The notes under the pieces were generated by a model, which was not told where the DNA came from, made no database searches, and was given only the letters and a program-made list of their open reading frames with translations. The position numbers and the translations under genes were made by a program. Positions 3,385-37,680 of a DNA stretch of 64,000 nt are shown one piece after another. How positions within the stretch are numbered: the stretch's first letter is position 1; every line of letters starts with the position of its first letter. Origin of the DNA: Escherichia coli (GTDB lineage: Bacteria; Pseudomonadota; Gammaproteobacteria; Enterobacterales; Enterobacteriaceae); assembly GCF_017348835.2 (NCBI RefSeq), contig NZ_CP071375.1; one strand, given 5' to 3'.

Positions 3385-3515
3385 CCCGACTCCTTTTTTG
3401 TATAGATAAACCATCAGCTGATAGTTTACCTGAAGAATATAGAGAAGTACTTACTTAACATTTTCCCATTTGGTACTATCTAACCCCTTTTCACTATTAA
3501 GAAGTAATGCCTACT

Positions 3516-5689: not shown

Positions 5690-8600
5690 ATGAGACACTT
5701 TATCTATCAGGACGAAAAATCACATAAATTCTGGGCGGTTGAGCAACAGGATAATGAGCTTCATATTAGATGGGGTAAAGTCGGTACTAACGGGCAAAGT
5801 CAGATAAAAAGTTTTTCAGATGCTGCTGCAGCGGCAAAAGCGGAGCTTAAGCTGATCGCAGAGAAAACGAAAAAAGGCTATGTGGAAAATGCTTCAGCAA
5901 ACGTGCATATCTCCCCCATCACCAAAGCCACTCCTGAAGTTGAAACTTCCCCTGAGAGTAAAAACCAACGCCCGTGGCTGGCTGATGATGCAGTTATTCC
6001 GGTAACTGACGATATTAACCGATTTGCTTTTCCTCATCGCTCTCGCCCCAGAGAGATCAATTATCTGCGCAAAGACGGTGAGATATGGAAGCGTATTGCA
6101 GATAACACCAGGGCATATGATCCCGACAACAATTACCGCTCTTATCCTGAAAACTGGCAGCAGGCTTTTGCTGAGTTACAAAGGCGAATTCTGGATAATC
6201 AACAGACAGGGAGTGCGCAATCTGATGCAGCATTGCTCTGGAGTTTTTGGAACTCTTACTCTGCAGATGAACTGGTCGATGACTTAGTCATTCGCTGTGG
6301 TCTGGAAAGCGCCGTTGAAATCGCCCTTTTTGCCCTTCAACTCAAATATAAACCAGTAAAAGGCGCAGTAACCACCATCATTCCACCTAATCACGAAGCA
6401 GAATCGCTACCTAGTTGGCATCAACGTCTATGTCATCATCTTTCACTCGCTTCAGAAGATGAGTGGCAACGCTGTGTAGATAAAGTACTCACCGCCATTC
6501 CGACGCTATCCCCCGCACGGCAACCTTTTGCGGCGCTACTGCTCCCTGAACGCCCGGATATCGCCCATGCTATAGCTCTACGCTATGCAGACCAAAACGT
6601 CCCGGCGATCACCTGGTTAAGTATGATGGTAAGCGATGATGTTGCCCTGGCCATCCAGGAAATATATGGTTTCCCACCGCTATATAATGATTTCCGCAAA
6701 TATCTGGCTACGTTGCTGGCAAATAATGGAATGCGTGGTGTAAGCCGGATTCTTCTCAAGCTACCTGTCGACTATCCCGTAAAATACACGGACCTTTTCA
6801 CTCACATACACGCCAATGCTGAAGATCTTGTCAAATGGCTATGGAAAACGAATCACCCGGATGCGATTCAAATTCTGATCCTCGGTGTAAATGGCAAGAA
6901 AAAGCACCTGGAATACTTAAGCAAAGCCTGCCAAAAACATCCCGCTGCGGCTATTGCCGCTTATGCTACTTTGCTGGCAATACATGAAAATAATGAGTGG
7001 CGTAAAGCGCTTGTCAAACTGATTACTGCCACGCCAGAGTTAGTATGCGAGGTCATTCCCTGGGTTAATGCTAAGGCGGCAGGCATCTTATCTGAATGTC
7101 GTCCGCTGCCAGTAGCTGAAGAATGTGAATATGCCACTGTGGATATGTTGCCGGAGCTGCTTGTCGCTCCACCGTGGATAATAAATAAGAAAAAGAATGT
7201 CATACCCGTATTTGATTTACCGGTACTTCCCATTCCTGCCGTCACGGATATCACACCAGGAATTACAGAGTTAATCAGTCATACTGACATATCCAGATTC
7301 AGTGAAATCGCGCAATATCAGGCATCACAGCAAACCTTATTTACCGATCTGCCACTAATTGAAAAAGAAAGCTGGGAGACATCTTTCATTCCTTTTACAC
7401 CAGAACAACAAATCCTTTGGCAATTAGGTTTTAATGAATGGCTGCATTGCGAAAATGACTTACATGAAAAAAAATATATACCGCAAAGCGCTGTTGATGC
7501 CTTGTTGCGCTTTGATTTTCCAGCACTAAAAGCTGAGTTTGCGAAATATCACAACAATGCCAACAAAAGCTGGAATCTATCTGCGCTTTGTTACTTACCG
7601 GGACAACAGGCGATCTCATTTCTCAACCAAATAATCATTGAGGAGCGATATTCAGGTGAGAAAGAGATTCTGGCGGTTTTTGGTAGTACGGCCATTCCTG
7701 CGTTTATGACCTGCTTGCAACGAGATCATCAACGCCTGTGGATATTCACCCTTTTTATTGGAGCCAGTGAACTAGCCTTACCAATGGCGCAGCGGTTACA
7801 GAAAAAAATGGGTTACAAGGATGCCGTTAATTGGCTGGCAAATAACCCGCGCCATGCCGCCGCCGGGCTACTGCCTTTGGCGCTGGGCAAACCGTGCCAA
7901 AATCGGGAATATGCCCGCCAGGCACTCCTCCTGCTAGTGAAATTAAACCAGCGAGAAACGATTGAGGAAATCACCCAAGGATATAATCAACCTGATGTTT
8001 TAGCTGCGCTGGCAACATTATTTGATAGCGACCCACTGGAAGAATATCCTGCAAAAATCGCCCCACTGCCCGGCTTTTATCAGTTCCCCTTATGGCGCAG
8101 ACCTCGGCTTAAAAGTAACAACCTGCCTCTGCCAGATGACACTATGCGCCACCTCGGCACAATGTTGAGCTTTCCACGCGACATTACCTCCTACGCTGGG
8201 CTGGCGATCATCAAAGAGACCTTCACCCGCGAATCACTGGCTGACTTTGGCTGGGATCTCTACACGGCATGGACAGAAGCTGGCGCACCCGCAAAAGAGA
8301 ACTGGGCATTTACCTCGCTGGGGATTCTAGGCAATGACGACACCGCGCGTAAACTAACCCCGCTCATCCGCGCCTGGCCGGGTGAATCCCAGCATAAACG
8401 CGCGGTTTACGGGCTGGATGTGTTAGCCAGTATCGGTAGCGACATTGCGCTTATGTTGCTTAATGGCATTGCGCAAAAGATTAAATTCGTTGCATTACAG
8501 GAACATGCCAGCGACAGAATCAATATGGTCGCCGAAAATCGCGGACTGACAATGGCCGAACTGGAAGATCGCCTGGCGCCGGATTTAGGGCTTGATAGCA

Positions 8601-9490
8601 GTGGCTCGCTGATACTGGATTTCGGCCCCCGCAAATTCACCGTTGGTTTTGACGAAACCTTAAAACCTGTAGTGTGCGATGCAAACGGCAAAGTCCTGAA
8701 AGATTTACCTAAGCCAAACCAGAGCGATGATAAAACACTGGCAACTGACGCAGTTAATCTCTTCAAACAGTTGAAAAAAGATGTTCGTGCTATCGCCAGC
8801 CAGCAAATTACCCGTCTGGAACAGGCTATGTGCCAGCGCAGACGCTGGACGGCAGAGCAGTTCCGCCTGTTTCTGGTGGAGCATCCGCTGGTACGTCACT
8901 TAACCCGACGGCTGTTATGGGGAGTATATACTGAGGAAAACACGCTGATTGCCTGCTTCCGGGTCGCAGAAGATAGCACTTACAGCGATGCGCAGGAAGA
9001 GCTATTCACGTTACCAGCAGGAAACATCGGTATTCCGCATGTGCTGGAAATATCCCCTGAATCCGCCGCTGCATTCAGGCAAATTTACGCTGATTACGAA
9101 CTGCTTCCCCCTTTCCAACAGCTCGAGCGAGGTAGCTATCACCTTGCTGATAATGAACGTAATACTCACGAACTGACACGCTGGCAAGGACGGCTTTGCC
9201 AGGCCGGACGCATTGTCGGGCTGGAACGCCGAGGCTGGCAACGTCTGGAAGAAAGCGGCAGCGTTTATGCGATGCGCAAAACAACCCCTCATGGCGATCT
9301 CGAACTTGAAACGGAACCTTTTTCATTAATTTATGGTGAAACGGGGTATGGCGACCAGCTACCGGTTGAAAGCGTAAAAATCACCTCGCCAGATGATCGC
9401 TACGGTAAACAATCCTCACTCACTTTCTCCATGCTCGACGACATCACCGCCAGCGAGCTGATTAACGACATCGAATCACTGTTTGATTAA
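5690..9490 (+). CDS. molR: MolR-family giant protein, copy 1: N-terminal WGR-like module plus conserved C-terminal region (recalled as DUF4132); intact here
   Basis: 1266 aa uninterrupted ORF; N-terminus FIYQDEKSHKFWAVEQQDNELHIRWGKVGTNGQ looks like a WGR domain; C-terminal ~450 aa align with the next two ORFs. Confidence 0.85.
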   Translation: MRHFIYQDEKSHKFWAVEQQDNELHIRWGKVGTNGQSQIKSFSDAAAAAKAELKLIAEKTKKGYVENASANVHISPITKATPEVETSPESKNQRPWLADDAVIPVTDDINRFAFPHRSRPREINYLRKDGEIWKRIADNTRAYDPDNNYRSYPENWQQAFAELQRRILDNQQTGSAQSDAALLWSFWNSYSADELVDDLVIRCGLESAVEIALFALQLKYKPVKGAVTTIIPPNHEAESLPSWHQRLCHHLSLASEDEWQRCVDKVLTAIPTLSPARQPFAALLLPERPDIAHAIALRYADQNVPAITWLSMMVSDDVALAIQEIYGFPPLYNDFRKYLATLLANNGMRGVSRILLKLPVDYPVKYTDLFTHIHANAEDLVKWLWKTNHPDAIQILILGVNGKKKHLEYLSKACQKHPAAAIAAYATLLAIHENNEWRKALVKLITATPELVCEVIPWVNAKAAGILSECRPLPVAEECEYATVDMLPELLVAPPWIINKKKNVIPVFDLPVLPIPAVTDITPGITELISHTDISRFSEIAQYQASQQTLFTDLPLIEKESWETSFIPFTPEQQILWQLGFNEWLHCENDLHEKKYIPQSAVDALLRFDFPALKAEFAKYHNNANKSWNLSALCYLPGQQAISFLNQIIIEERYSGEKEILAVFGSTAIPAFMTCLQRDHQRLWIFTLFIGASELALPMAQRLQKKMGYKDAVNWLANNPRHAAAGLLPLALGKPCQNREYARQALLLLVKLNQRETIEEITQGYNQPDVLAALATLFDSDPLEEYPAKIAPLPGFYQFPLWRRPRLKSNNLPLPDDTMRHLGTMLSFPRDITSYAGLAIIKETFTRESLADFGWDLYTAWTEAGAPAKENWAFTSLGILGNDDTARKLTPLIRAWPGESQHKRAVYGLDVLASIGSDIALMLLNGIAQKIKFVALQEHASDRINMVAENRGLTMAELEDRLAPDLGLDSSGSLILDFGPRKFTVGFDETLKPVVCDANGKVLKDLPKPNQSDDKTLATDAVNLFKQLKKDVRAIASQQITRLEQAMCQRRRWTAEQFRLFLVEHPLVRHLTRRLLWGVYTEENTLIACFRVAEDSTYSDAQEELFTLPAGNIGIPHVLEISPESAAAFRQIYADYELLPPFQQLERGSYHLADNERNTHELTRWQGRLCQAGRIVGLERRGWQRLEESGSVYAMRKTTPHGDLELETEPFSLIYGETGYGDQLPVESVKITSPDDRYGKQSSLTFSMLDDITASELINDIESLFD

Positions 9491-9502
9491 AAGGATTTAA
9501 CA

Positions 9503-12500
9503 ATGAAAACCTATATTTATCAGGACGAAAAATCACATAAATTCTGGGCGGTGGAGCAGCAGAGAAACGAGCTGCATATTACCTGGGGTAAAGTCGGCAC
9601 TAACGGGCAAAGTCAGGTAAAAAGCTTTGCAGATGCTGCGGCGGCGGAAAAAGCGGAACTGAAGCTGATTGCGGAGAAGGTGAAGAAGGGGTATGTGGAG
9701 CAAGTAGACGCTAACGCTCACTCACATGATGCCTCAGCAAAGAAAGTCCTGGTCACAGAGGAAAAAGCCTCAATAAATCACCAGGCAGCAACTAATGGTT
9801 TACCCTGGCTGGCAGATAACGATCCCATTATTCTTCCCCCGAATATTGCCCGCCATGCCCTCAGCCACCGCCTTTGGCCGGGAGAGCCAGTAAAAAAGCC
9901 AACCAAACCCGAGAAACAAAATTTAATTTCCCGATTGGCAAATCGTACTTATCATTATTATAAAAATCTGACTTTCGATTACAGCTCATGCTCTGATGAA
10001 TGGGCTGATGCGATTAGCCAGGCAATCAGCTTAATTAAGGCCCAAAAGACTGAGATACCCGCGCGTACTATGGCGGTACTTACTTTTCTGGAAATATGTT
10101 TTTGTCAGGGCTGGAATGATGAAACCTCACCCGAGTTGCTGGATGAAATTGTAAGCACCTTCGGTATCGAATACGCAACTGAAACTGTCATCTTCTGGTG
10201 GCAAATTGATTTCGATTTTGACTATAAAGATGAACATTTGACTTTCTTTATTAATTATGGAGATAGCAGCAAGGACAGTTATAGAAGGAATAACGACAAA
10301 TTTAGTTTACGTCTGCGTAAACATTTATCACTAGCAGAAGAAGAAGTATGGCAAAATTGCATTGCAAAATTACTCGTTGCGTTACCAGATATATCACTCT
10401 ATCGCCAACCGTTAATTGCCATTTTAATGCCAGAAATACCCGAAGTGGCCCATGAGATCGTACATCGTTTACACCAGGTCGCAGATGTTCCACAACTTGA
10501 AATGTTGAAACTGGTAGCGACAGATCCATTCACGCTCGAAATACTGGAGAACTATCAATACATTGATGTATTTAACACCTATGGTGCCAGTTGGTCAGCT
10601 ACGGTATTACGGGAGCAAGGTATAGCGGCACTGGCTCGCCTGGCTCCCTATGCTGAAGAAGATAATTGCGGTGACGTACTGAAATGTATTAATCATCCGT
10701 TGGCCATTACGGCACTCATCGAAGCCGCCGATACTAATAAACGCTGTTATGAACGACTAATAAAAAGTGCCGAAAATTTTCCTTCTGCAACGATAGTGGC
10801 ATTAGCCGAAGCATTGGTAAAAAAAGATGATAAACGCAAACATATGTTGCTGGTTTCATTACTTAATGCAAATCCTTTATTGGTCGAAAAATTAGTCATC
10901 GGATTATCGTCGCAAGCGGCAAATTTATTGCAACAATGTCAGCAATTGCTGAATAGTCGCAATGAAGATTTTGCAAACTCAGAAATTCTACCAATGGTAC
11001 TAGTCTCGCCGCCCTGGGAAACTCAAAATAAAAATAACGACAACAGTCCTGTGGGTAAATACCCGGCGAAAATCCCCCCTTTGCCGTTGTTTTATCAACC
11101 TCCATTATGGACTCGCCCGAAACTCAAAAATAGCAGCAAGGTACTGCCAGATAGCGCCCTCCTCCACCTCGGTGAAATGCTCCGCTTCCCTCAGGAAGAG
11201 GCTCTGTATCCGGGATTATTGCAGGTGAAAGATGCCTGTACCGCCGACTCACTGGCTGAATTTGCCTGGGATCTGTTTACCGCCTGGCTGACTGCGGGCG
11301 CACCGTCGAAAGAGAGTTGGGCGTTCACTGCGTTAGGCGTTCTTGGTAACGATGACACCGCTCGCAAACTGACGCCATTAATCCGCGCCTGGCCTGGTGA
11401 ATCCCAGCATAAACGCGCCACCGTCGGGCTTGATATCCTCGCCGCTATCGGTAGTGATATCGCCCTGATGCAGCTTAACGGCATTGCTCAGAAACTGAAA
11501 TTCAAAGCTTTACAGGAGCGGGCGAAAGAGAAAATTGCCGACATTGCTGAAAGCCGCGAACTCACGGTGGCGGAGCTTGAAGATCGGTTAGCACCAGATC
11601 TCGGTCTGGATGATAACGGTTCGTTGCTGCTGGATTTCGGCTCACGCCAGTTCACCGTCAGCTTTGATGAAACCTTAAAACCGTTTGTGCGTGATGTTTC
11701 TGGCAGCCGTCTGAAAGACCTGCCCAAACCAAACAAAAGCGATGATGAATCACAGGCGAACGATGCTGTTAACCGCTACAAACTGCTGAAAAAAGATGCG
11801 CGTACCGTCGCCGCCCAGCAGGTAGCAAGGCTGGAATCCGCCATGTGCCTGCGTCGCCGCTGGTCACCGGAAAACTTTCAGCTCTTCCTGGTTGAGCATC
11901 CGCTGGTTCGCCACTTAACCCGCCGTCTGATTTGGGGCGTTTATAGCGCCGAAAACCAGCTGCAGGCTTGCTTTCGCGTAGCGGAAGATAACAGCTACAG
12001 CACCGCTGACGATGATCTTTTCACCCTGCCGGAAGGCGATATCTCTATTGGTATTCCTCACGTTCTGGAAATATCACCGACGGATGCTGCCGCCTTTGGT
12101 CAGCTTTTTGCCGACTACGAACTGTTACCACCGTTCCGCCAGCTTGACCGTAACAGTTACGCCCTGACAGAAGCCGAGCGCAACGCCAGCGAACTGACCC
12201 GCTGGGCAGGCAGAAAATGCCCGAGCGGTCGGGTAATGGGGCTGGCGAATAAAGGCTGGATAAAGGGCGAACCACAGGATGGAGGCTGGATCGGCTGGAT
12301 GATCAAACCTCTGGGCCGCTGGTCGTTAATCATGGAAATCGATGAAGGCTTTGCAGTGGGTATGTCACCAGCCGAACTTAGCGCTGAGCAGCTCTTAAGC
12401 AAGCTGTGGCTATGGGAAGGCAAAGCGGAAAGCTATGGCTGGGGGAGTAATTCAACACAGGAAGCGCAGCTCTCCGTACTCGATGCCATCACCGCCAGCG

Positions 12501-12535
12501 AGCTAATTAACGATATTGAAGCCCTGTTTGAATAA
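9503..12535 (+). CDS. MolR-family paralog, copy 2: WGR-like N-terminus plus conserved C-terminal region
   Basis: 1010 aa ORF starting 13 nt after copy 1; N-terminal 65 aa nearly identical to copy 1, with a 34 nt identical DNA run at 5705-5738 and 9518-9551; C-terminus ends ...ITASELINDIEALFE like copy 1. Confidence 0.85.
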   Translation: MKTYIYQDEKSHKFWAVEQQRNELHITWGKVGTNGQSQVKSFADAAAAEKAELKLIAEKVKKGYVEQVDANAHSHDASAKKVLVTEEKASINHQAATNGLPWLADNDPIILPPNIARHALSHRLWPGEPVKKPTKPEKQNLISRLANRTYHYYKNLTFDYSSCSDEWADAISQAISLIKAQKTEIPARTMAVLTFLEICFCQGWNDETSPELLDEIVSTFGIEYATETVIFWWQIDFDFDYKDEHLTFFINYGDSSKDSYRRNNDKFSLRLRKHLSLAEEEVWQNCIAKLLVALPDISLYRQPLIAILMPEIPEVAHEIVHRLHQVADVPQLEMLKLVATDPFTLEILENYQYIDVFNTYGASWSATVLREQGIAALARLAPYAEEDNCGDVLKCINHPLAITALIEAADTNKRCYERLIKSAENFPSATIVALAEALVKKDDKRKHMLLVSLLNANPLLVEKLVIGLSSQAANLLQQCQQLLNSRNEDFANSEILPMVLVSPPWETQNKNNDNSPVGKYPAKIPPLPLFYQPPLWTRPKLKNSSKVLPDSALLHLGEMLRFPQEEALYPGLLQVKDACTADSLAEFAWDLFTAWLTAGAPSKESWAFTALGVLGNDDTARKLTPLIRAWPGESQHKRATVGLDILAAIGSDIALMQLNGIAQKLKFKALQERAKEKIADIAESRELTVAELEDRLAPDLGLDDNGSLLLDFGSRQFTVSFDETLKPFVRDVSGSRLKDLPKPNKSDDESQANDAVNRYKLLKKDARTVAAQQVARLESAMCLRRRWSPENFQLFLVEHPLVRHLTRRLIWGVYSAENQLQACFRVAEDNSYSTADDDLFTLPEGDISIGIPHVLEISPTDAAAFGQLFADYELLPPFRQLDRNSYALTEAERNASELTRWAGRKCPSGRVMGLANKGWIKGEPQDGGWIGWMIKPLGRWSLIMEIDEGFAVGMSPAELSAEQLLSKLWLWEGKAESYGWGSNSTQEAQLSVLDAITASELINDIEALFE

Positions 12536-12544
12536 GGAAAGAGC

Positions 12545-15500
12545 ATGGACAAGGAATTACCGTGGCTGGCTGATAACGCCCAACTGGAACTGAAATATAA
12601 AAAGGGTAAAACACCACTCAGCCATCGCAATTGGCCGGGCGAACCAGTGCCTGTTATCACTGAAAGCATCATTCAGACACTGGGTGATGAATTGCTACAA
12701 AAAGCTGAGAAGAAAAAAAACATTGTCTGGCGTTATGAAAATTTTTCACTGGAGTGGCAGTCCGCCATCACGCAGGCCATCAACTTGATCGGCGAACACA
12801 AACCCTCAATCCCGGCCCGGACAATGGCGGCGCTAGCCTGTATCGCGCAAAATGACAGCCAACAGTTGCTCGACGAAATCGTCCAACAAGAGGGGCTGGA
12901 ATATGCGACTGAGGTGGTGATTGCACGCCAGTTTATTGCGCGGTGTTATGAGAGTGATCCTCTGGTAGTGACATTGCAGTATCAGGACGAGGATTATGGC
13001 TATGGTTATCGCTCAGAAACCTATAACGAATTCGATCTCCGACTGCGTAAGCATCTCTCTCTGGCAGAGGAAAGCTGCTGGCAGCGTTGCGCCGACAAAC
13101 TCATTGCCGCACTACCAGGAATAACCAAAGTTCGCCGCCCTTTTATTGCGCTGATCCTCCCGGAAAAACCAGAAATAGCCAATGAGTTGGTAGGCCTTGA
13201 ATGCCCGCGAACTCATTTTCATTCTAAGGAGTGGTTAAAAGTTGTTGCTAATGACCCCACAGCGGTGAGAAAACTCGAACACTACTGGAGCCAGGATATA
13301 TTTAGCGATCGAGAAGCCAGCTACATGTCGCATGAAAACCACTTCGGCTACGCGGCCTGCGCCTCCCTTTTGCGCGAACAAGGACTGGCAGCCGTTCCGC
13401 GCCTGGCAATGTATGCTCATAAAGAAGATTGCGGCAGTCTGCTGGTACAAATTAACCATCCGCAAGTCATCCGCACCTTGCTGTTAGTTGCTGATAAAAA
13501 CAAACCCAGCCTGCAACGTGTGGCTAAATACAGTAAAAACTTCCCCCATGCGACGCTCGCCGCACTGGCAGAACTGCTGGCGTTAAAAGAACCACCAGCC
13601 CGCCCTGGTTATCCAATCATCGAAGACAAAAAGCTGCCTGCACAGCAAAAAGCTCGAGATGAATACTGGCGTACGCTGTTACAAACGCTGATGGCATCGC
13701 AGCCACAACTGGCAGCAGAAGTGATGCCGTGGTTAAGTACTCAAGCCAGGGCAGTGCTGAAGAGTTATTTATCGGCACTGCCAAAACCGGTTATTGATGG
13801 CACCGATAACAGCAATCTGCCTGAAATCCTCGTTTCACCACCGTGGCGTAGTAAGAAAAAAATGACAGCTCCACGTCTTGATTTGGCACGGCTCGAATTA
13901 ACTCCGCAAGTTTACTGGCAACCAGGCGAACGAGAGAGGCTTGCCGCCACTGAGCCTGCCCGTTATTTCAGCACGGAATCTCTTGCGGAACGCATGGAAC
14001 AAAAAAGTGGACGAGTTGTATTACAGGAACTGGGTTTTGGGGATGATGTATGGCTGTTTTTGAATTATATACTCCCCGGAAAACTGGATGCTGCACGCAA
14101 TTCACTCATTGTTGAGTGGCATTACTACCAGGGGCGGGTTGAAGAGATCCTGAATGGCTGGAACTCCCCGGAAGCACAATTAGCAGAACAGGCGCTTCGC
14201 AGCGGTCACGTAGAAGCGTTAATTAACATATGGGAAAATGACAACTACTCACGTTATCGTCCGGAAAAGAGTGTCTGGAACCTGTATTTATTGGCACAGT
14301 TGCCGCGTGAGATGGCTTTGACCTTCTGGCTGCGTATCAATGAGAAAAAACATCTGTTCGCGGGTGAGGACTATTTTCTCAGTATCCTCGGATTGGATGC
14401 GCTACCAGGTCTGCTGTTGGCTTTTTCACATCGTCCAAAAGAAACATTTCCGTTAATTTTAAATTTTGGCGCAACAGAACTGGCCCTGCCTGTTGCCCGC
14501 GTCTGGCGACGTTTCGCGGTGCAGCGTGATCTGGCTCGCCAGTGGATTTTACAATGGCCGGAACATACGGCTACTGCACTTATCCCTCTTGTCTTCACCA
14601 AATCTAGCGATAAAAGCGAAGCTGCATTACTTGCCCTGCGTTTACTTTACGAACATGGGCATGGCGAATTGCTACAAACTGTAGCCAATCGTTGGCAGCG
14701 TACAGATCTATGGCCTGCCCTGGAACAATTACTTAAACAGAGTCCAATAGAGATTTACCCGGCACGCATTCCAAAAGCCCCTGATTTCTGGCATCCGCAA
14801 ATGTGGTCCAGGCCGCGCCTTATCACTAATAATCAAACTGTTACCGATGACGCTCTGGAAATTATCGGCGAAATGCTGCGCTTTACCCAGGGGGGACGTT
14901 TTTATAGCTGGCTGGAACAACTGAAAACGTTCTGCCAGCCACAAACGCTGGCAGCTTTTGCCTGGGATCTCTTCACTGCGTGGCAACAAGCTGGTGCCCC
15001 CGCAAAAGACAACTGGGCATTTCTGGCGTTAAGTCTCTTTGGTGACGAAAGCACGGCACGGGATCTGACGACACAGATCCTCGCCTGGCCACAAGAAGGC
15101 AAATCTGCCCGTGCTGTCAGCGGCCTGAACATCCTTACCCTGATGAATAATGATATGGCGCTGATACAGCTGCATCATATATCGCAACGGGCTAAATCCC
15201 GCCCCTTACGTGATAACGCGGCGGAATTTCTTCAGGTGGTCGCAGAAAATCGCGGGCTAAGCCAGGAAGAGCTAGCGGACAGATTAGTCCCAACCCTGGG
15301 CCTTGATGATCCGCAGGCGTTGAGTTTTGATTTTGGTCCCCGGCAGTTTACCGTTCGCTTCGATGAAAACCTCAACCCGGTTATCTTTGATCAGCAAAAC
15401 GTTCGCCAGAAAAGCGTTCCCCGGTTGCGCGCCGATGACGATCAACTGAAAGCGCCCGAGGCACTGGCCCGACTAAAAGGGCTAAAAAAAGATGCCACTC

Positions 15501-16177
15501 AGGTGAGCAAAAACCTGCTCCCGCGTCTTGAAACGGCCCTACGTACCACCCGACGCTGGTCGCTGGCAGATTTTCATTCTCTGTTTGTTAATCATCCCTT
15601 TACCCGTCTGGTTACCCAGCGATTAATATGGGGGGCTTATCCGGCAAATGAACCGCGTTGTTTACTCAACGCCTTTCGTGTGGCCGCAGAGGGGGAGTTC
15701 TGCAATGCGCAAGATGAGCCCATTGGCCTGCCTGCGGATGCTCTGATTGGCATTGCCCACCCGTTAGAAATGGCAGCAGAAATGCGCAGTGAATTTGCAC
15801 AGCTTTTTGCCGATTACGAAATTATGCCGCCTTTTCGCCAGTTGGCGCGGCGCACGGTGCTGCTGACGCCTGACGAGTCAGCCAGTAACAGCCTGACTCG
15901 CTGGGAAGGTAAATCCGCTACCGTTGGGCAACTTATGGGAATGCGATACAAAGGCTGGGAGTCAGGCTATGAGGACGCATTTGTCTATGACTTAAGTGAA
16001 TACCGGCTGGTCCTTAAGTTTTCACCCGGTTTTAACCACTACAATGTTGATAGCAAAGCGCTAATGAGCTTCCGTTCTCTTCGAGTGTACCGTGACAATA
16101 AATCCGTCACTTTTGCCGAACTTGATGTGTTTGATTTGAGTGAGGCGTTAAGCGCACCTGACGTCATTTTCCATTAA
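12545..16177 (+). CDS. yehI: MolR-family paralog, copy 3: conserved C-terminal region but no WGR module
   Basis: 1210 aa ORF starting 10 nt after copy 2; shares the conserved blocks (e.g. ...FAWDLFTAW...GAPAK.NWAF...) but has a different N-terminus and C-terminal tail. Confidence 0.85.
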   Translation: MDKELPWLADNAQLELKYKKGKTPLSHRNWPGEPVPVITESIIQTLGDELLQKAEKKKNIVWRYENFSLEWQSAITQAINLIGEHKPSIPARTMAALACIAQNDSQQLLDEIVQQEGLEYATEVVIARQFIARCYESDPLVVTLQYQDEDYGYGYRSETYNEFDLRLRKHLSLAEESCWQRCADKLIAALPGITKVRRPFIALILPEKPEIANELVGLECPRTHFHSKEWLKVVANDPTAVRKLEHYWSQDIFSDREASYMSHENHFGYAACASLLREQGLAAVPRLAMYAHKEDCGSLLVQINHPQVIRTLLLVADKNKPSLQRVAKYSKNFPHATLAALAELLALKEPPARPGYPIIEDKKLPAQQKARDEYWRTLLQTLMASQPQLAAEVMPWLSTQARAVLKSYLSALPKPVIDGTDNSNLPEILVSPPWRSKKKMTAPRLDLARLELTPQVYWQPGERERLAATEPARYFSTESLAERMEQKSGRVVLQELGFGDDVWLFLNYILPGKLDAARNSLIVEWHYYQGRVEEILNGWNSPEAQLAEQALRSGHVEALINIWENDNYSRYRPEKSVWNLYLLAQLPREMALTFWLRINEKKHLFAGEDYFLSILGLDALPGLLLAFSHRPKETFPLILNFGATELALPVARVWRRFAVQRDLARQWILQWPEHTATALIPLVFTKSSDKSEAALLALRLLYEHGHGELLQTVANRWQRTDLWPALEQLLKQSPIEIYPARIPKAPDFWHPQMWSRPRLITNNQTVTDDALEIIGEMLRFTQGGRFYSWLEQLKTFCQPQTLAAFAWDLFTAWQQAGAPAKDNWAFLALSLFGDESTARDLTTQILAWPQEGKSARAVSGLNILTLMNNDMALIQLHHISQRAKSRPLRDNAAEFLQVVAENRGLSQEELADRLVPTLGLDDPQALSFDFGPRQFTVRFDENLNPVIFDQQNVRQKSVPRLRADDDQLKAPEALARLKGLKKDATQVSKNLLPRLETALRTTRRWSLADFHSLFVNHPFTRLVTQRLIWGAYPANEPRCLLNAFRVAAEGEFCNAQDEPIGLPADALIGIAHPLEMAAEMRSEFAQLFADYEIMPPFRQLARRTVLLTPDESASNSLTRWEGKSATVGQLMGMRYKGWESGYEDAFVYDLSEYRLVLKFSPGFNHYNVDSKALMSFRSLRVYRDNKSVTFAELDVFDLSEALSAPDVIFH

Positions 16178-16237: not shown

Positions 16238-16555
16238 ATGATCGTGCAAAAAGAGCTGGTTGCTATTTACGATTATGAGGTCCCTGTACCTGAAGATCCG
16301 TTTTCCTTCAGACTTGAGATCCATAAATGCTCTGAATTATTTACAGGTTCCGTCTATCGACTGGAGCGATTCCGGCTACATCCAACATTTCGTCAACGTG
16401 ATCGAGAAGATGCTGACCCGCTAATAAATGATGCGTTGATTTATATAAGAGATGAGTGTATTGATGAGCGGAAATTACGAGGTGAATCACCTGAAACTGT
16501 AATAGCAATTTTTAATCGTGAACTACAGAATATATTCAACCAAGAAATAGAATAA
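16238..16555 (+). CDS. yehK: Small cytoplasmic protein of unknown function
   Basis: 105 aa ORF downstream of yehI, preceded by a stem-loop (CGGGCAGT-GATGCAA-CTGCCCG at 16186-16208). Confidence 0.75.
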   Translation: MIVQKELVAIYDYEVPVPEDPFSFRLEIHKCSELFTGSVYRLERFRLHPTFRQRDREDADPLINDALIYIRDECIDERKLRGESPETVIAIFNRELQNIFNQEIE

Positions 16556-16573
16556 TATACTCTAGATAATTCA

Positions 16574-16610
16574 AGTCGCAGCACATGCAACTTGAAGTAT
16601 GACGAGTATA
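16574..16610. repeat. Partial ERIC (IRU) repeat
   Basis: AGTCGCAGCACATGCAACTTGAAGTATGACGAGTATA matches the 3' half of the ERIC copy at 46682-46770. Confidence 0.7.
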
Positions 16611-16617
16611 GCTTTAT

Positions 16618-16645
16618 TAAAGGGGGAAGCGGTTTTCCCCCTTAG
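16618..16645. terminator. Bidirectional hairpin between yehK and the toxin ORF
   Basis: AAGGGGGAA-GCGGTT-TTCCCCCTT perfect stem-loop. Confidence 0.6.
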
Positions 16646-16664
16646 ATGCGTTTCAATTTGCCCG

Positions 16665-16754
16665 TTACTTCAACAAATCAATCAACCGTAACAGAGCTAC
16701 TAATAGCTCCAGTACAGCAATGAGCACGGTTAACTTTTGTGTCAGCGTGTCCAT
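16665..16754 (-). CDS. zorO: 29 aa hydrophobic type I toxin peptide (ZorO-like)
   Basis: Reverse-strand ORF MDTLTQKLTVLIAVLELLVALLRLIDLLK, one predicted TM helix, AGGAG RBS 7 nt upstream, ~175 nt 5' UTR from a TATAAT at 16941-16936; UTR carries a 20-mer complementary to the divergent sRNA. Confidence 0.65.
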   Translation of the reverse strand: MDTLTQKLTVLIAVLELLVALLRLIDLLK

Positions 16755-16935
16755 CCGCTCTCCTTATTAAGGAGCGCAACACCAGCACCTTACCCTTACA
16801 CTGCCTGTCGATACTGGTTTACGTATGTTGGACCACGATGTTGCACTCCGGATCAGGGCACCACCTGCAGCACCACCCGTCCGGTAGCCAGGACTTGAAA
16901 TAGGTTCGATCCGGCGCAACGTCCCAACGGTCTGG

Positions 16936-16986
16936 ATTATAAATCTCATTATCTTAATTGCAACGGGGTCCAGCCGTGGTTATAAT
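16936..16986. promoter_or_regulatory. Back-to-back sigma70 promoters for the toxin mRNA (-) and antitoxin sRNA (+), sharing a palindromic -35
   Basis: Plus strand: TTGCAA (16958-16963), 17 nt spacer, TATAAT (16981-16986). Minus strand: the same palindromic TTGCAA, 16 nt spacer, TATAAT (complement of 16936-16941). Confidence 0.55.
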
Positions 16987-16992
16987 TCGTTC

Positions 16993-17077
16993 GTTGGAAC
17001 ACGATGTTGCACAGGCTGTGGTGTTAGGCCTGAAAATAGTAAATAAAAGAACCTGCCTCACCAGCAGGTTTTTTTAT
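16993..17077 (+). ncRNA. orzO: Candidate antitoxin small RNA (OrzO-like), ~85 nt
   Basis: Predicted start ~7 nt after the consensus -10; 5' end GTTGGAACACGATGTTGCAC repeats 16827-16846 (GTTGGACCACGATGTTGCAC, one mismatch) inside the toxin 5' UTR; ends at terminator ACCTGC-CTCACCA-GCAGGTTTTTTT (17050-17077). Confidence 0.55.
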
Positions 17078-17186
17078 TTACTGTGATCTGCTTTCCAGAT
17101 ATTTTTCGCTCAAACAACTAATGCGCCAAACATTTATTGCGCGTAAAATATCGTTTATTTCATTAATACATTTCAGGGATGAATAT

Positions 17187-18275
17187 ATGTCACCGCAGAA
17201 TAATCATCTGCAGCGTCCGCCTGCTGCTGTGTTATACGCCGATGAACTGGCAAAATTAAAACAAAATGATACCGCACCTTGCCCGCCCGGTTGGCAGTTA
17301 AGTTTGCCTGCGGCCCGTGCTTTTATCCTTGGCGATAGCGCGCAAAATATTAGCCGTAAAGTGGTGATTAGTCCCTCCGCTGTCGAACGTATGTTAGTCA
17401 CTCTTGCCACCGGACGCGGTTTGATGTTGGTGGGGGAACCTGGCAGCGCAAAATCTCTCCTGTCTGAATTACTGGCAACCGCTATTAGCGGCGATGCCGG
17501 GTTAACCATCCAGGGCGGCGCATCTACTACCGAAGATCAAATCAAGTACGGCTTGAACTACGCCCTGCTTATCAATCATGGTCCATCAACGGAAGCGCTG
17601 GTCCCTGCCCCGCTTTACCAGGGAATGCGCGACGGCAAAATCGTCCGTTTTGAAGAGATAACGCGTACACCGCTGGAAGTGCAAGACTGTCTGTTAGGTA
17701 TGCTTTCTGACAGGGTGATGACGGTGCCGGAACTCACTGGTGAAGCCAGTCAGCTCTATGCGCGAGAAGGCTTTAATATTATTGCCACTGCCAATACCCG
17801 CGATCGCGGCGTCAATGAAATGAGTGCTGCGCTAAAGCGTCGCTTCGATTTTGAAACTGTCTTTCCGATTATGGATTTCGTCCAGGAGCTGGAGCTTGTC
17901 GCCAGTGCTTCGGCGCGTTTGCTGGCCCATAGCGGTATTCCGCATAAAGTGCCTGACGCGGTACTGGAGTTACTGGTCCGCACCTTCCGCGATCTGCGTG
18001 CCAACGGCGAAAAGAAAACGTCAATGGATACACTAACAGCGATTATGTCCACCGCTGAAGCCGTGAACGTGGCCCACGCTGTGGGCGTCCGCGCCTGGTT
18101 TTTAGCGAATCGCGCAGGTGAGCCAGCCGATCTGGTGGACTGTATTGCCGGAACCATCGTCAAAGATAACGAAGAAGATCGCGCTCGTCTGCGCCGTTAC
18201 TTCGAACAGCGAGTCGCCATACATAAAGAAGCTCACTGGCAGGCTTATTATCAAGCCCGCCACCGCCTGCCGTGA
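17187..18275 (+). CDS. yehL: MoxR-type AAA+ ATPase
   Basis: Walker A LVGEPGSAKS; Walker-B-like IVRFEEITR (Glu where Asp is usual); sensor-1-like IIATANTRD; RRF arginine finger; start taken at MSPQNNH inside ORF 17121..18275. Confidence 0.85.
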   Translation: MSPQNNHLQRPPAAVLYADELAKLKQNDTAPCPPGWQLSLPAARAFILGDSAQNISRKVVISPSAVERMLVTLATGRGLMLVGEPGSAKSLLSELLATAISGDAGLTIQGGASTTEDQIKYGLNYALLINHGPSTEALVPAPLYQGMRDGKIVRFEEITRTPLEVQDCLLGMLSDRVMTVPELTGEASQLYAREGFNIIATANTRDRGVNEMSAALKRRFDFETVFPIMDFVQELELVASASARLLAHSGIPHKVPDAVLELLVRTFRDLRANGEKKTSMDTLTAIMSTAEAVNVAHAVGVRAWFLANRAGEPADLVDCIAGTIVKDNEEDRARLRRYFEQRVAIHKEAHWQAYYQARHRLP

Positions 18276-24837: not shown

Positions 24838-25557
24838 TTACAGGCCAATCGCCTCTTTTAAGCTTTTCAGATAACGGCGGCTGACCGGCACGGTTAAGCC
24901 ATTACGCAAAATCAACTCGGCCTGGCCGTTATCTTCCAGACGAATCTCCTGTAAATGCGCGAGGTTAACCAGATACTGACGATGGCAGCGCAGTAGTGGT
25001 GTACGACTTTCCAGGGTACGTAATGTCAATTCGGTAAAGCCCTCTTTCCCTTCGTGGCTGGTAACGTAGACACCGCTCATCCGACTGCTGACAAATGCCA
25101 CATCTTTCATTTGCAACAAATAAATCCGACTATGCCCCGTACAAGGGATAAATTTCAGCGCCTGTTGATTTTCCGGTAACAGCGAAACATCCTGCTTGCT
25201 GCGTTCCTGACGCAAACGCGCCAGCGTTTTCTCCAGTCGCGCTTCATCAATTGGCTTCAGCAGATAGTCAAAGGCATGTTCTTCAAAGGCTTTAATAGCG
25301 TATTCGTCAAACGCGGTGAGAAAAACAATATACGGACGATGTTCCGGGTCGAGCATCCCCACCATTTCCAGACCACTGATGCGCGGCATCTGGATATCGA
25401 GAAACAGCACATCCGGGCGCAGTTTATGCACCGCGCCGATCCCTTCCACGGCGTTTGAACACTCACCAACGATTTCAATATCGCTCTGCTCCTGCAAAAA
25501 TACGCGCAGGTTCTCCCGTGCTAACGGTTCATCATCGACAATTAAGACTTTAATCAT
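24838..25557 (-). CDS. btsR: LytTR-family response regulator of the pyruvate-sensing BtsS/BtsR system
   Basis: Receiver domain [17 protein letters not shown]...[10 protein letters not shown] with C-terminal LytTR-like domain; 4 nt ATGA overlap with the upstream kinase gene. Confidence 0.9.
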
Positions 25558-37507: not shown

Positions 37508-37680
37508 GATGAGCATTCAGATAGTGGTTCACGCGCACGGGTTGCGCACCGCCGGAGTAAGGATTTACTGAGGCTAGCGACGCCATCATAACGAGCAAAA
37601 AGTGCGATCGTCAAAGGAGAATCGTGAGGAAATGCTGCATTGCTGACATTTACGCCAGCAATGCAACGTCAAAGAACTTT

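Follow-up and report, generated by a model that had tools for sequence, protein, structure and literature searches.

The DNA between yehK and yehL in this Escherichia coli genome very probably carries a single, apparently intact chromosomal copy of the zor/orz type I toxin-antitoxin locus, of the zorP/orzP type as judged from its sequence. The locus was analyzed within a window of 64 kb (the whole stretch of DNA under study, numbered from its first nucleotide). Both flanking genes, yehK (16238-16555) and yehL (annotated start 17188), are on the plus strand and are separated by a spacer of 631 bp; their names were taken from E. coli F2_81 and E. coli O157:H7 MB9-1, strains in which the family lies between the same two genes. 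E. coli F2_81 was found to be 100% identical across a 561-nt query of the locus. The toxin ORF, the two promoters, the paired 20-mers and the sRNA named in the original prediction were each located where it had placed them. Its bounds of 16665-17077 held for these elements but not for the left limit, as 16665 belongs to the stop codon of the toxin ORF and the module reaches to about 16612, at the zor terminator. Searches of the 64-kb window by peptide pattern, Rfam and 20-mer each returned a single occurrence, and no second copy of the module was found. The proposal that one toxin copy is present here, compared to two in tandem in O157:H7, was borne out, with one module in the 631-bp yehK-yehL spacer of the window and two tandem modules in the 1240-bp spacer of O157:H7. 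The structure, mechanism, distribution and copy-number variation of zor/orz, as well as the orphan antitoxin of K-12, have all been published previously.

The toxin ORF (16754..16665, minus strand), which was taken from the ORF list, consists of 29 codons plus a stop and encodes MDTLTQKLTVLIAVLELLVALLRLIDLLK. This 29-aa peptide is the same as ZorO of E. coli O157:H7 (the yehK-proximal copy, copy 1), as the original prediction had stated, and it is hydrophobic (GRAVY 1.40) with a core of LTVLIAVLELLVALL. The synonymous sites of the ORF are of zorP type, even though the peptide is the ZorO variant. ZorO is described as an inner-membrane toxin of 29 aa (PMC6669753), and overproduction of the toxin from zorO has been found to halt growth. 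Since the two peptides are identical, this toxicity would transfer directly to the toxin of the window. Among zor ORFs as a whole, 72.5% encode the ZorO protein, and the length of the zor ORF is kept in 99.5% of loci. A scan of the 29-aa peptide against NCBIfam returned no family at E ≤ 1, an outcome that points to missing coverage in the library and does not speak against the gene.

The segment from 16500 to 17250 was scanned for promoters by comparison to the sigma-70 consensus. By this approach, exactly two sigma-70-like sites were detected, each matching at 10 of 12 positions: a toxin promoter on the minus strand with a -10 TATAAT at 16936..16941, and an antitoxin promoter on the plus strand with a -10 TATAAT at 16981..16986. 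Both use the palindromic hexamer TTGCAA at 16958-16963 as their common -35, with a spacer of 16 nt to the zor -10 and of 17 nt to the orz -10; the earlier description of back-to-back promoters with one palindromic -35 was thus literally right. Shuffled sequences gave 1.7 ± 1.5 promoter-like sites, and a count of two is not significant alone. It is the geometry of the shared hexamer, rather than the number of sites, that carries the promoter evidence. The elements agree with the published consensus table for the family (-35 TTGCAA and -10 TATAAT for both genes, with an RBS of AAGGAG), in which the zor -10 TATAAT is kept in 100% of zor loci and the -35 TTGCAA is listed for both zor and orz with an identical conservation of 99.4%. 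The same promoter geometry is readable in K-12 and in each of the O157 modules. Because one TTGCAA serves as the -35 in opposite orientations, two RNA polymerase holoenzymes would not be able to hold both promoters together, and the shared hexamer may make the locus a hard-wired either/or switch in which each initiation picks toxin or antitoxin, a notion that we regard as rather unlikely. If it were true, the difference in spacer length (16 versus 17 nt), together with flanking sequence, would determine the ratio of toxin to antitoxin, and a layer of transcriptional control would be added on top of RNA pairing. No discussion of mutual exclusion of the promoters through the shared -35 was found in the zor/orz literature text that was searched.

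An OrzP-type antitoxin sRNA of about 85 nt was assigned to 16993-17077 on the plus strand, with its pairing region at +1..+20 and the triplet V1 (ACG) at 17001-17003. The Rfam model OrzO-P (RF02083) matched at 17000-17075 (+) over its full length (model positions 1-76) with 99.9 bits compared to a gathering score of 60 (E = 6e-17), and was one of only two gathering-level Rfam matches in the whole window. The family and architecture of the zorO/orzO class that had been proposed were upheld. The 85-nt sRNA was found to be 100% identical to OrzP of O157 and to the copy in MG1655. The RNA of MG1655 orzP, named OrzPmg, has been detected by northern blotting and was gone on deletion (PMC11264685). 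Expression of the sRNA from the locus of the window is well supported, as an alignment of 16932-17200 to MG1655, a segment that takes in the -10 box of each promoter and their common -35, revealed zero mismatches and the RNA has been seen in that strain. The stem of a strong intrinsic terminator was predicted at 17050-17070 (+) by fold and by the Rfam structure, followed by a T run to 17077. Since A runs border this hairpin on one flank and T runs on the opposite flank, either strand can be scored as a terminator; the terminator scan reported the orz hairpin on the minus strand only and did not report the orz terminator on the plus strand. The same property accounts for a spurious OrzO-P match on the minus strand at 17045-17155 (25 bits). 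That match was rejected along with Thr_leader, Trp_leader, isrH (16556-16610) and the other weak Rfam matches in the region as terminator look-alikes far below gathering score.

Based on a leader of 174 nt and the register of the RBS, we infer that the toxin mRNA starts at G16928. With this start, the leader is 174 nt in length, in accord with the value of ~174 nt given in the original prediction, and the RBS AAGGAG (16765-16760) falls at +164..+169, as published for zorO. An inverted repeat at 16757..16777 (minus strand) would form a hairpin in which AAGGAG is paired with CUCCUU; in the predicted fold the RBS has a mean unpaired probability of 0.07, or is 93% paired. The RBS of zorO at +164..+169 has likewise been reported to sit within a stem, and AAGGAG is kept in 99.8% of zor loci. 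The first 28 nt of the mRNA (16901..16928, minus strand) would, given the putative start, be the counterpart of the segment that is processed off zorO. The counterpart of the EAP ('exposed after processing'), or putative ribosome standby, region lies at +73..+102 (16856..16827, minus strand) and includes the conserved GGAGUG. In the MFE fold, nucleotides 1-22 are predicted to pair with +74..+102 and thereby to close this target/EAP region. The first ~22 nt (16907-16928, minus strand) read GUUGGGACGUUGCGCCGGAUC and open with GUUGG, as does the antitoxin. By its predicted pairing to the same leader segment (+74..+102), the 5' end of the mRNA may act as a built-in antitoxin mimic. For zorO, the full-length mRNA is poorly translated, its processing is rare, and the Δ28 processed form is the better translated one. 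In the predicted fold of the mRNA of the window, the mean unpaired probability of the target region rose from 0.33 to 0.44 after removal of the 28 nt; since this gain in accessibility is small, the thermodynamic prediction is consistent with the published Δ28 structural switch but reproduces it only weakly and does not amount to independent proof. The 3' end of the zor mRNA was predicted at 16612..16643 (minus strand), where the MFE fold places a hairpin, AAGGGGGAAAACCGCUUCCCCCUU (16643..16620), with a tail rich in U/A behind it. This hairpin is conserved at the corresponding position of each O157 copy and was not reported by the terminator scan because its T run is weak. A toxin transcript from 16928 to ~16615 would be about 314 nt, and published northern blots of zorO displayed bands of about 310 and about 280 nt.

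The site in the toxin 5' UTR that is predicted to be the target of the antitoxin is located at 16827..16846 (minus strand), corresponding to +83..+102 of the mRNA, 73-92 nt upstream of the AUG and inside the EAP region. On the plus strand, the 20-mer at 16993-17012 recurs in direct orientation at 16827-16846 with one mismatch (19/20), and the two are complementary as RNAs because the toxin mRNA is read from the minus strand and the sRNA from the plus strand. Two matches to the 20-mer were found in 0 of 100 shuffles of the window. The computed duplex of the 5' 25 nt of the sRNA with the toxin mRNA was -34.8 kcal/mol, compared to -19.7 ± 2.6 kcal/mol for mononucleotide-shuffled 25-mers (best, -29.0), in agreement with the stable duplex between sRNA and toxin leader that the original prediction had called for. 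The pairing follows a 6(1)13 pattern of 19 pairs with an A·G mismatch at sRNA +7. According to the published rule, which was derived by experiment, repression takes 15 or more continuous pairs or, where one internal mismatch interrupts the pairing, 17 or more discontinuous pairs (PMC3919570); the 6(1)13 pattern lies within this rule, and the site has the family location of ~73-91 nt upstream of the AUG. The potential for pairing is kept in 99.8% of full zor/orz loci. The target tests in the publications consulted used zorO, and it is by the pairing rule that OrzP would be expected to repress the zorP-type leader. Rescue of zorO by OrzO needs RNase III and does not need Hfq, and OrzO also blocks zorO translation by occupying the EAP region.

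Taken together, these features suggest a mechanism in which the promoters with the shared -35, as read from the sequence, would yield a toxin mRNA of ~314 nt from the minus strand and an sRNA of ~85 nt from the plus strand, the latter step being based on the identical sequence in MG1655, where the RNA has been shown. Within the 174-nt leader the RBS would be locked in its hairpin and, in the full-length mRNA, the first ~22 nt would close the single-stranded EAP region. Removal of 28 nt, as shown for zorO and suggested here by register and predicted fold, would open the EAP region and aid the loading of ribosomes. The first 20 nt of the sRNA are computed to pair with +83..+102 of the leader (6 pairs, the A·G mismatch and 13 pairs), and this pairing would block the standby region and trigger RNase III-dependent decay, as has been shown for zorO and OrzO. 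Once translated, the hydrophobic peptide of 29 aa would be expected to insert into the inner membrane and stop growth, as shown for the identical ZorO peptide.

We compared the module to the two paralogous pairs of O157:H7, which were defined by Wen et al. (2014) as zorO/orzO (z3289) and zorP/orzP (z3290) of strain EDL933 and which differ at V1, i.e., sRNA positions +9..+11, with GAA in OrzO and ACG in OrzP (PMC3919570). In the same study OrzP did not repress zorO, and the O and P pairs are thus insulated from each other. The module of the window (16612-17080) was found to be 98.5% identical to zorP/orzP of O157 over 470 aligned columns and 88.1% identical to zorO/orzO, and its V1 triplet, counted from +1 at G16993, is ACG as in OrzP. 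By nucleotide sequence, the copy in the window is thus assigned to the zorP/orzP-type paralogue and not to zorO/orzO; the name zorO/orzO in the original prediction was right for the family and for the peptide but not for the paralogue. The substitution that distinguishes the ZorP peptide (T3S) is absent, residue 3 being Thr as in ZorO. The published classification of zor loci uses the nucleotide bit score and not the peptide, and a P-type locus with Thr3 is not an unusual combination, given that 72.5% of ORFs encode ZorO and that 1079 records are nearly identical to the segment of the window that spans the ORF and target. A name of 'ZorO' derived from the peptide only would mislabel the paralogue, an error of some consequence given the lack of cross-reaction between OrzO and OrzP.

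The locus was also compared to its counterpart in K-12 and to complete E. coli genomes. In MG1655 the yehK-yehL spacer is 306 bp, and alignment revealed that 325 bp (16573-16897 of the window) are missing, including the toxin ORF, the RBS, the target site and most of the leader. What MG1655 retains is a leader remnant of about 31 nt, the two promoters with their -10 boxes and common -35, and a complete and identical orzP, the state published as 'orz-only'. The original prediction that the locus is absent from K-12 was thus accurate for the toxin but not for the antitoxin, as both promoters and an identical orzP are kept in MG1655. Some part of the locus query was matched in 5424 of 5426 complete E. 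coli genomes, and the toxin segment was detected in about 3392-3397 of the 5426 (~63%), at a median of 2 places. These counts agree with the copy-number shares published for 2,212 assemblies, of which 25% have one full locus, 42% two full loci, about 30% orz only and 3% no match. Since single copies are common and the toxin segment is present in 3397 of 5426 genomes, the locus is a weak marker of strain background, a use for which it had been put forward.

Other readings of the locus were weighed against a functional toxin-antitoxin module. That a short ORF came to lie by chance beside a hairpin resembling a terminator and hexamers resembling promoters would be compatible with the two promoter-like sites, a number that shuffled sequence also gives (1.7 ± 1.5), but this explanation is refuted beyond practical doubt by the Rfam E value of 6e-17, by the occurrence of the 20-mer pair in 0 of 100 shuffles and by near-identity to an experimentally characterised locus. 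It is also very unlikely, though less extremely so, that the locus is a silent and functionless relic, with an intact sequence from which the toxin is never naturally made. The poor translation of full-length zorO and its rare processing would fit such a relic, as would a literature with no settled biological role for the chromosomal locus and the lack of RefSeq annotation. By contrast, ORF length (99.5%), RBS (99.8%) and promoters (>99%) are conserved over thousands of loci and 1079 records contain the 196-nt segment with the ORF and target at ≥99% identity, a degree of conservation that is not expected of a neutral relic; in addition, multicopy zor-orz has been reported to alter aminoglycoside tolerance.

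A further reading, in which the sRNA acts mainly in trans on mRNAs other than that of the toxin, and E. coli is in the course of losing a toxin half that it can do without, seems rather unlikely to us, though less so than a relic. In its favor, ~30% of E. coli, including K-12, keep orz alone, with its promoter and transcript conserved and expressed, the sRNA of K-12 is identical along its entire length, and the toxin part is present in only about 3392-3397 of the 5426 genomes, compared to 5424 for any part of the query. Published work names no other target of Orz, however, and both the cognate target site and an intact toxin ORF are present in the window, with the potential for pairing kept in 99.8% of full loci. 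Regulation in trans would add to the toxin-antitoxin reading and does not exclude it.

Examination of RefSeq/PGAP annotation revealed zero features in the yehK-yehL spacer (16556-17187 of the window) in any genome examined. A characterised toxin-antitoxin pair thus goes unannotated in thousands of genomes, and the toxin gene is routinely invisible because RefSeq/PGAP annotates nothing in the spacer and NCBIfam is without a model for the peptide.

Several features of the surrounding DNA were also observed. Directly after the stop codon of yehK, at 16556-16610, is a 55-nt imperfect palindrome with arms of 25 nt that are 80% complementary. This palindrome is a dispersed repeat that 5425 of the 5426 E. 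coli genomes contain, at 25064 places in total and a median of 5 per genome; it is also found in the dxs-yajO spacer of MG1655 and gives a sub-threshold Rfam match to isrH (22 bits). The deletion of the toxin in K-12 begins inside this repeat, at 16573. The Rfam motif Peptidase-S11 was matched at 37512-37592 (minus strand) with 72.8 bits compared to a gathering score of 34.8, in a region that by synteny with F2_81 holds pbpG (D-alanyl-D-alanine endopeptidase). In F2_81 the two genes upstream of yehI encode intact DUF4132 proteins, and by offset from 9131-15976 of the F2_81 locus this pair is estimated to lie at ~5690-12535 of the window; its counterpart in K-12 is a shorter yehF gene and a yehH pseudogene. 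The yehLMPQ genes encode MoxR-type AAA+ ATPase, DUF5682, vWA and SWIM proteins, with an internal stop in yehM of O157 strain MB9-1. The DUF4132 pair, yehI and yehLMPQ together look like one large gene cluster.

Among characterised systems, the module of the window is most readily compared to zorP/orzP of O157:H7 EDL933 (z3290; Fozo 2010, Wen 2014), with which it shares 98.5% identity, the identical 85-nt sRNA, the A·G mismatch at sRNA +7, a position proximal to yehL and the same promoters, RBS and terminators. It differs from that pair in codon 3, which is Ser (TCG) in a peptide of MDSLTQ... in O157:H7 and Thr (ACG) in the window, in three leader substitutions (16875, 16929 and 16933) and three more at the ends of the alignment, and in having no zorO/orzO copy upstream. 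With zorO/orzO of EDL933 (z3289) it has in common the identical 29-aa peptide, the architecture, the Rfam family of the sRNA, the register of the 174-nt leader and the positions of the RBS and target. By contrast, nucleotide identity to this pair is 88.1%, V1 is GAA in EDL933 versus ACG in the window, and pairing there extends over 18 continuous pairs instead of the 6(1)13 pattern. OrzPmg of K-12 MG1655 (mSystems 2024, PMC11264685) is identical as an sRNA and has promoters with no mismatch to those of the window, but is an orphan from which the toxin ORF, RBS, target and all but ~31 nt of the leader are gone. The module also resembles tisB/istR-1, shoB/ohsC and dinQ/agrB in that the 5' UTR is long and processed, its RBS is sequestered, and a divergent sRNA binds it at a distant upstream site, a standby-site style of control; the likeness drawn here is one of control style, and those systems have other peptides and other regulators (e.g., LexA for tisB and dinQ).
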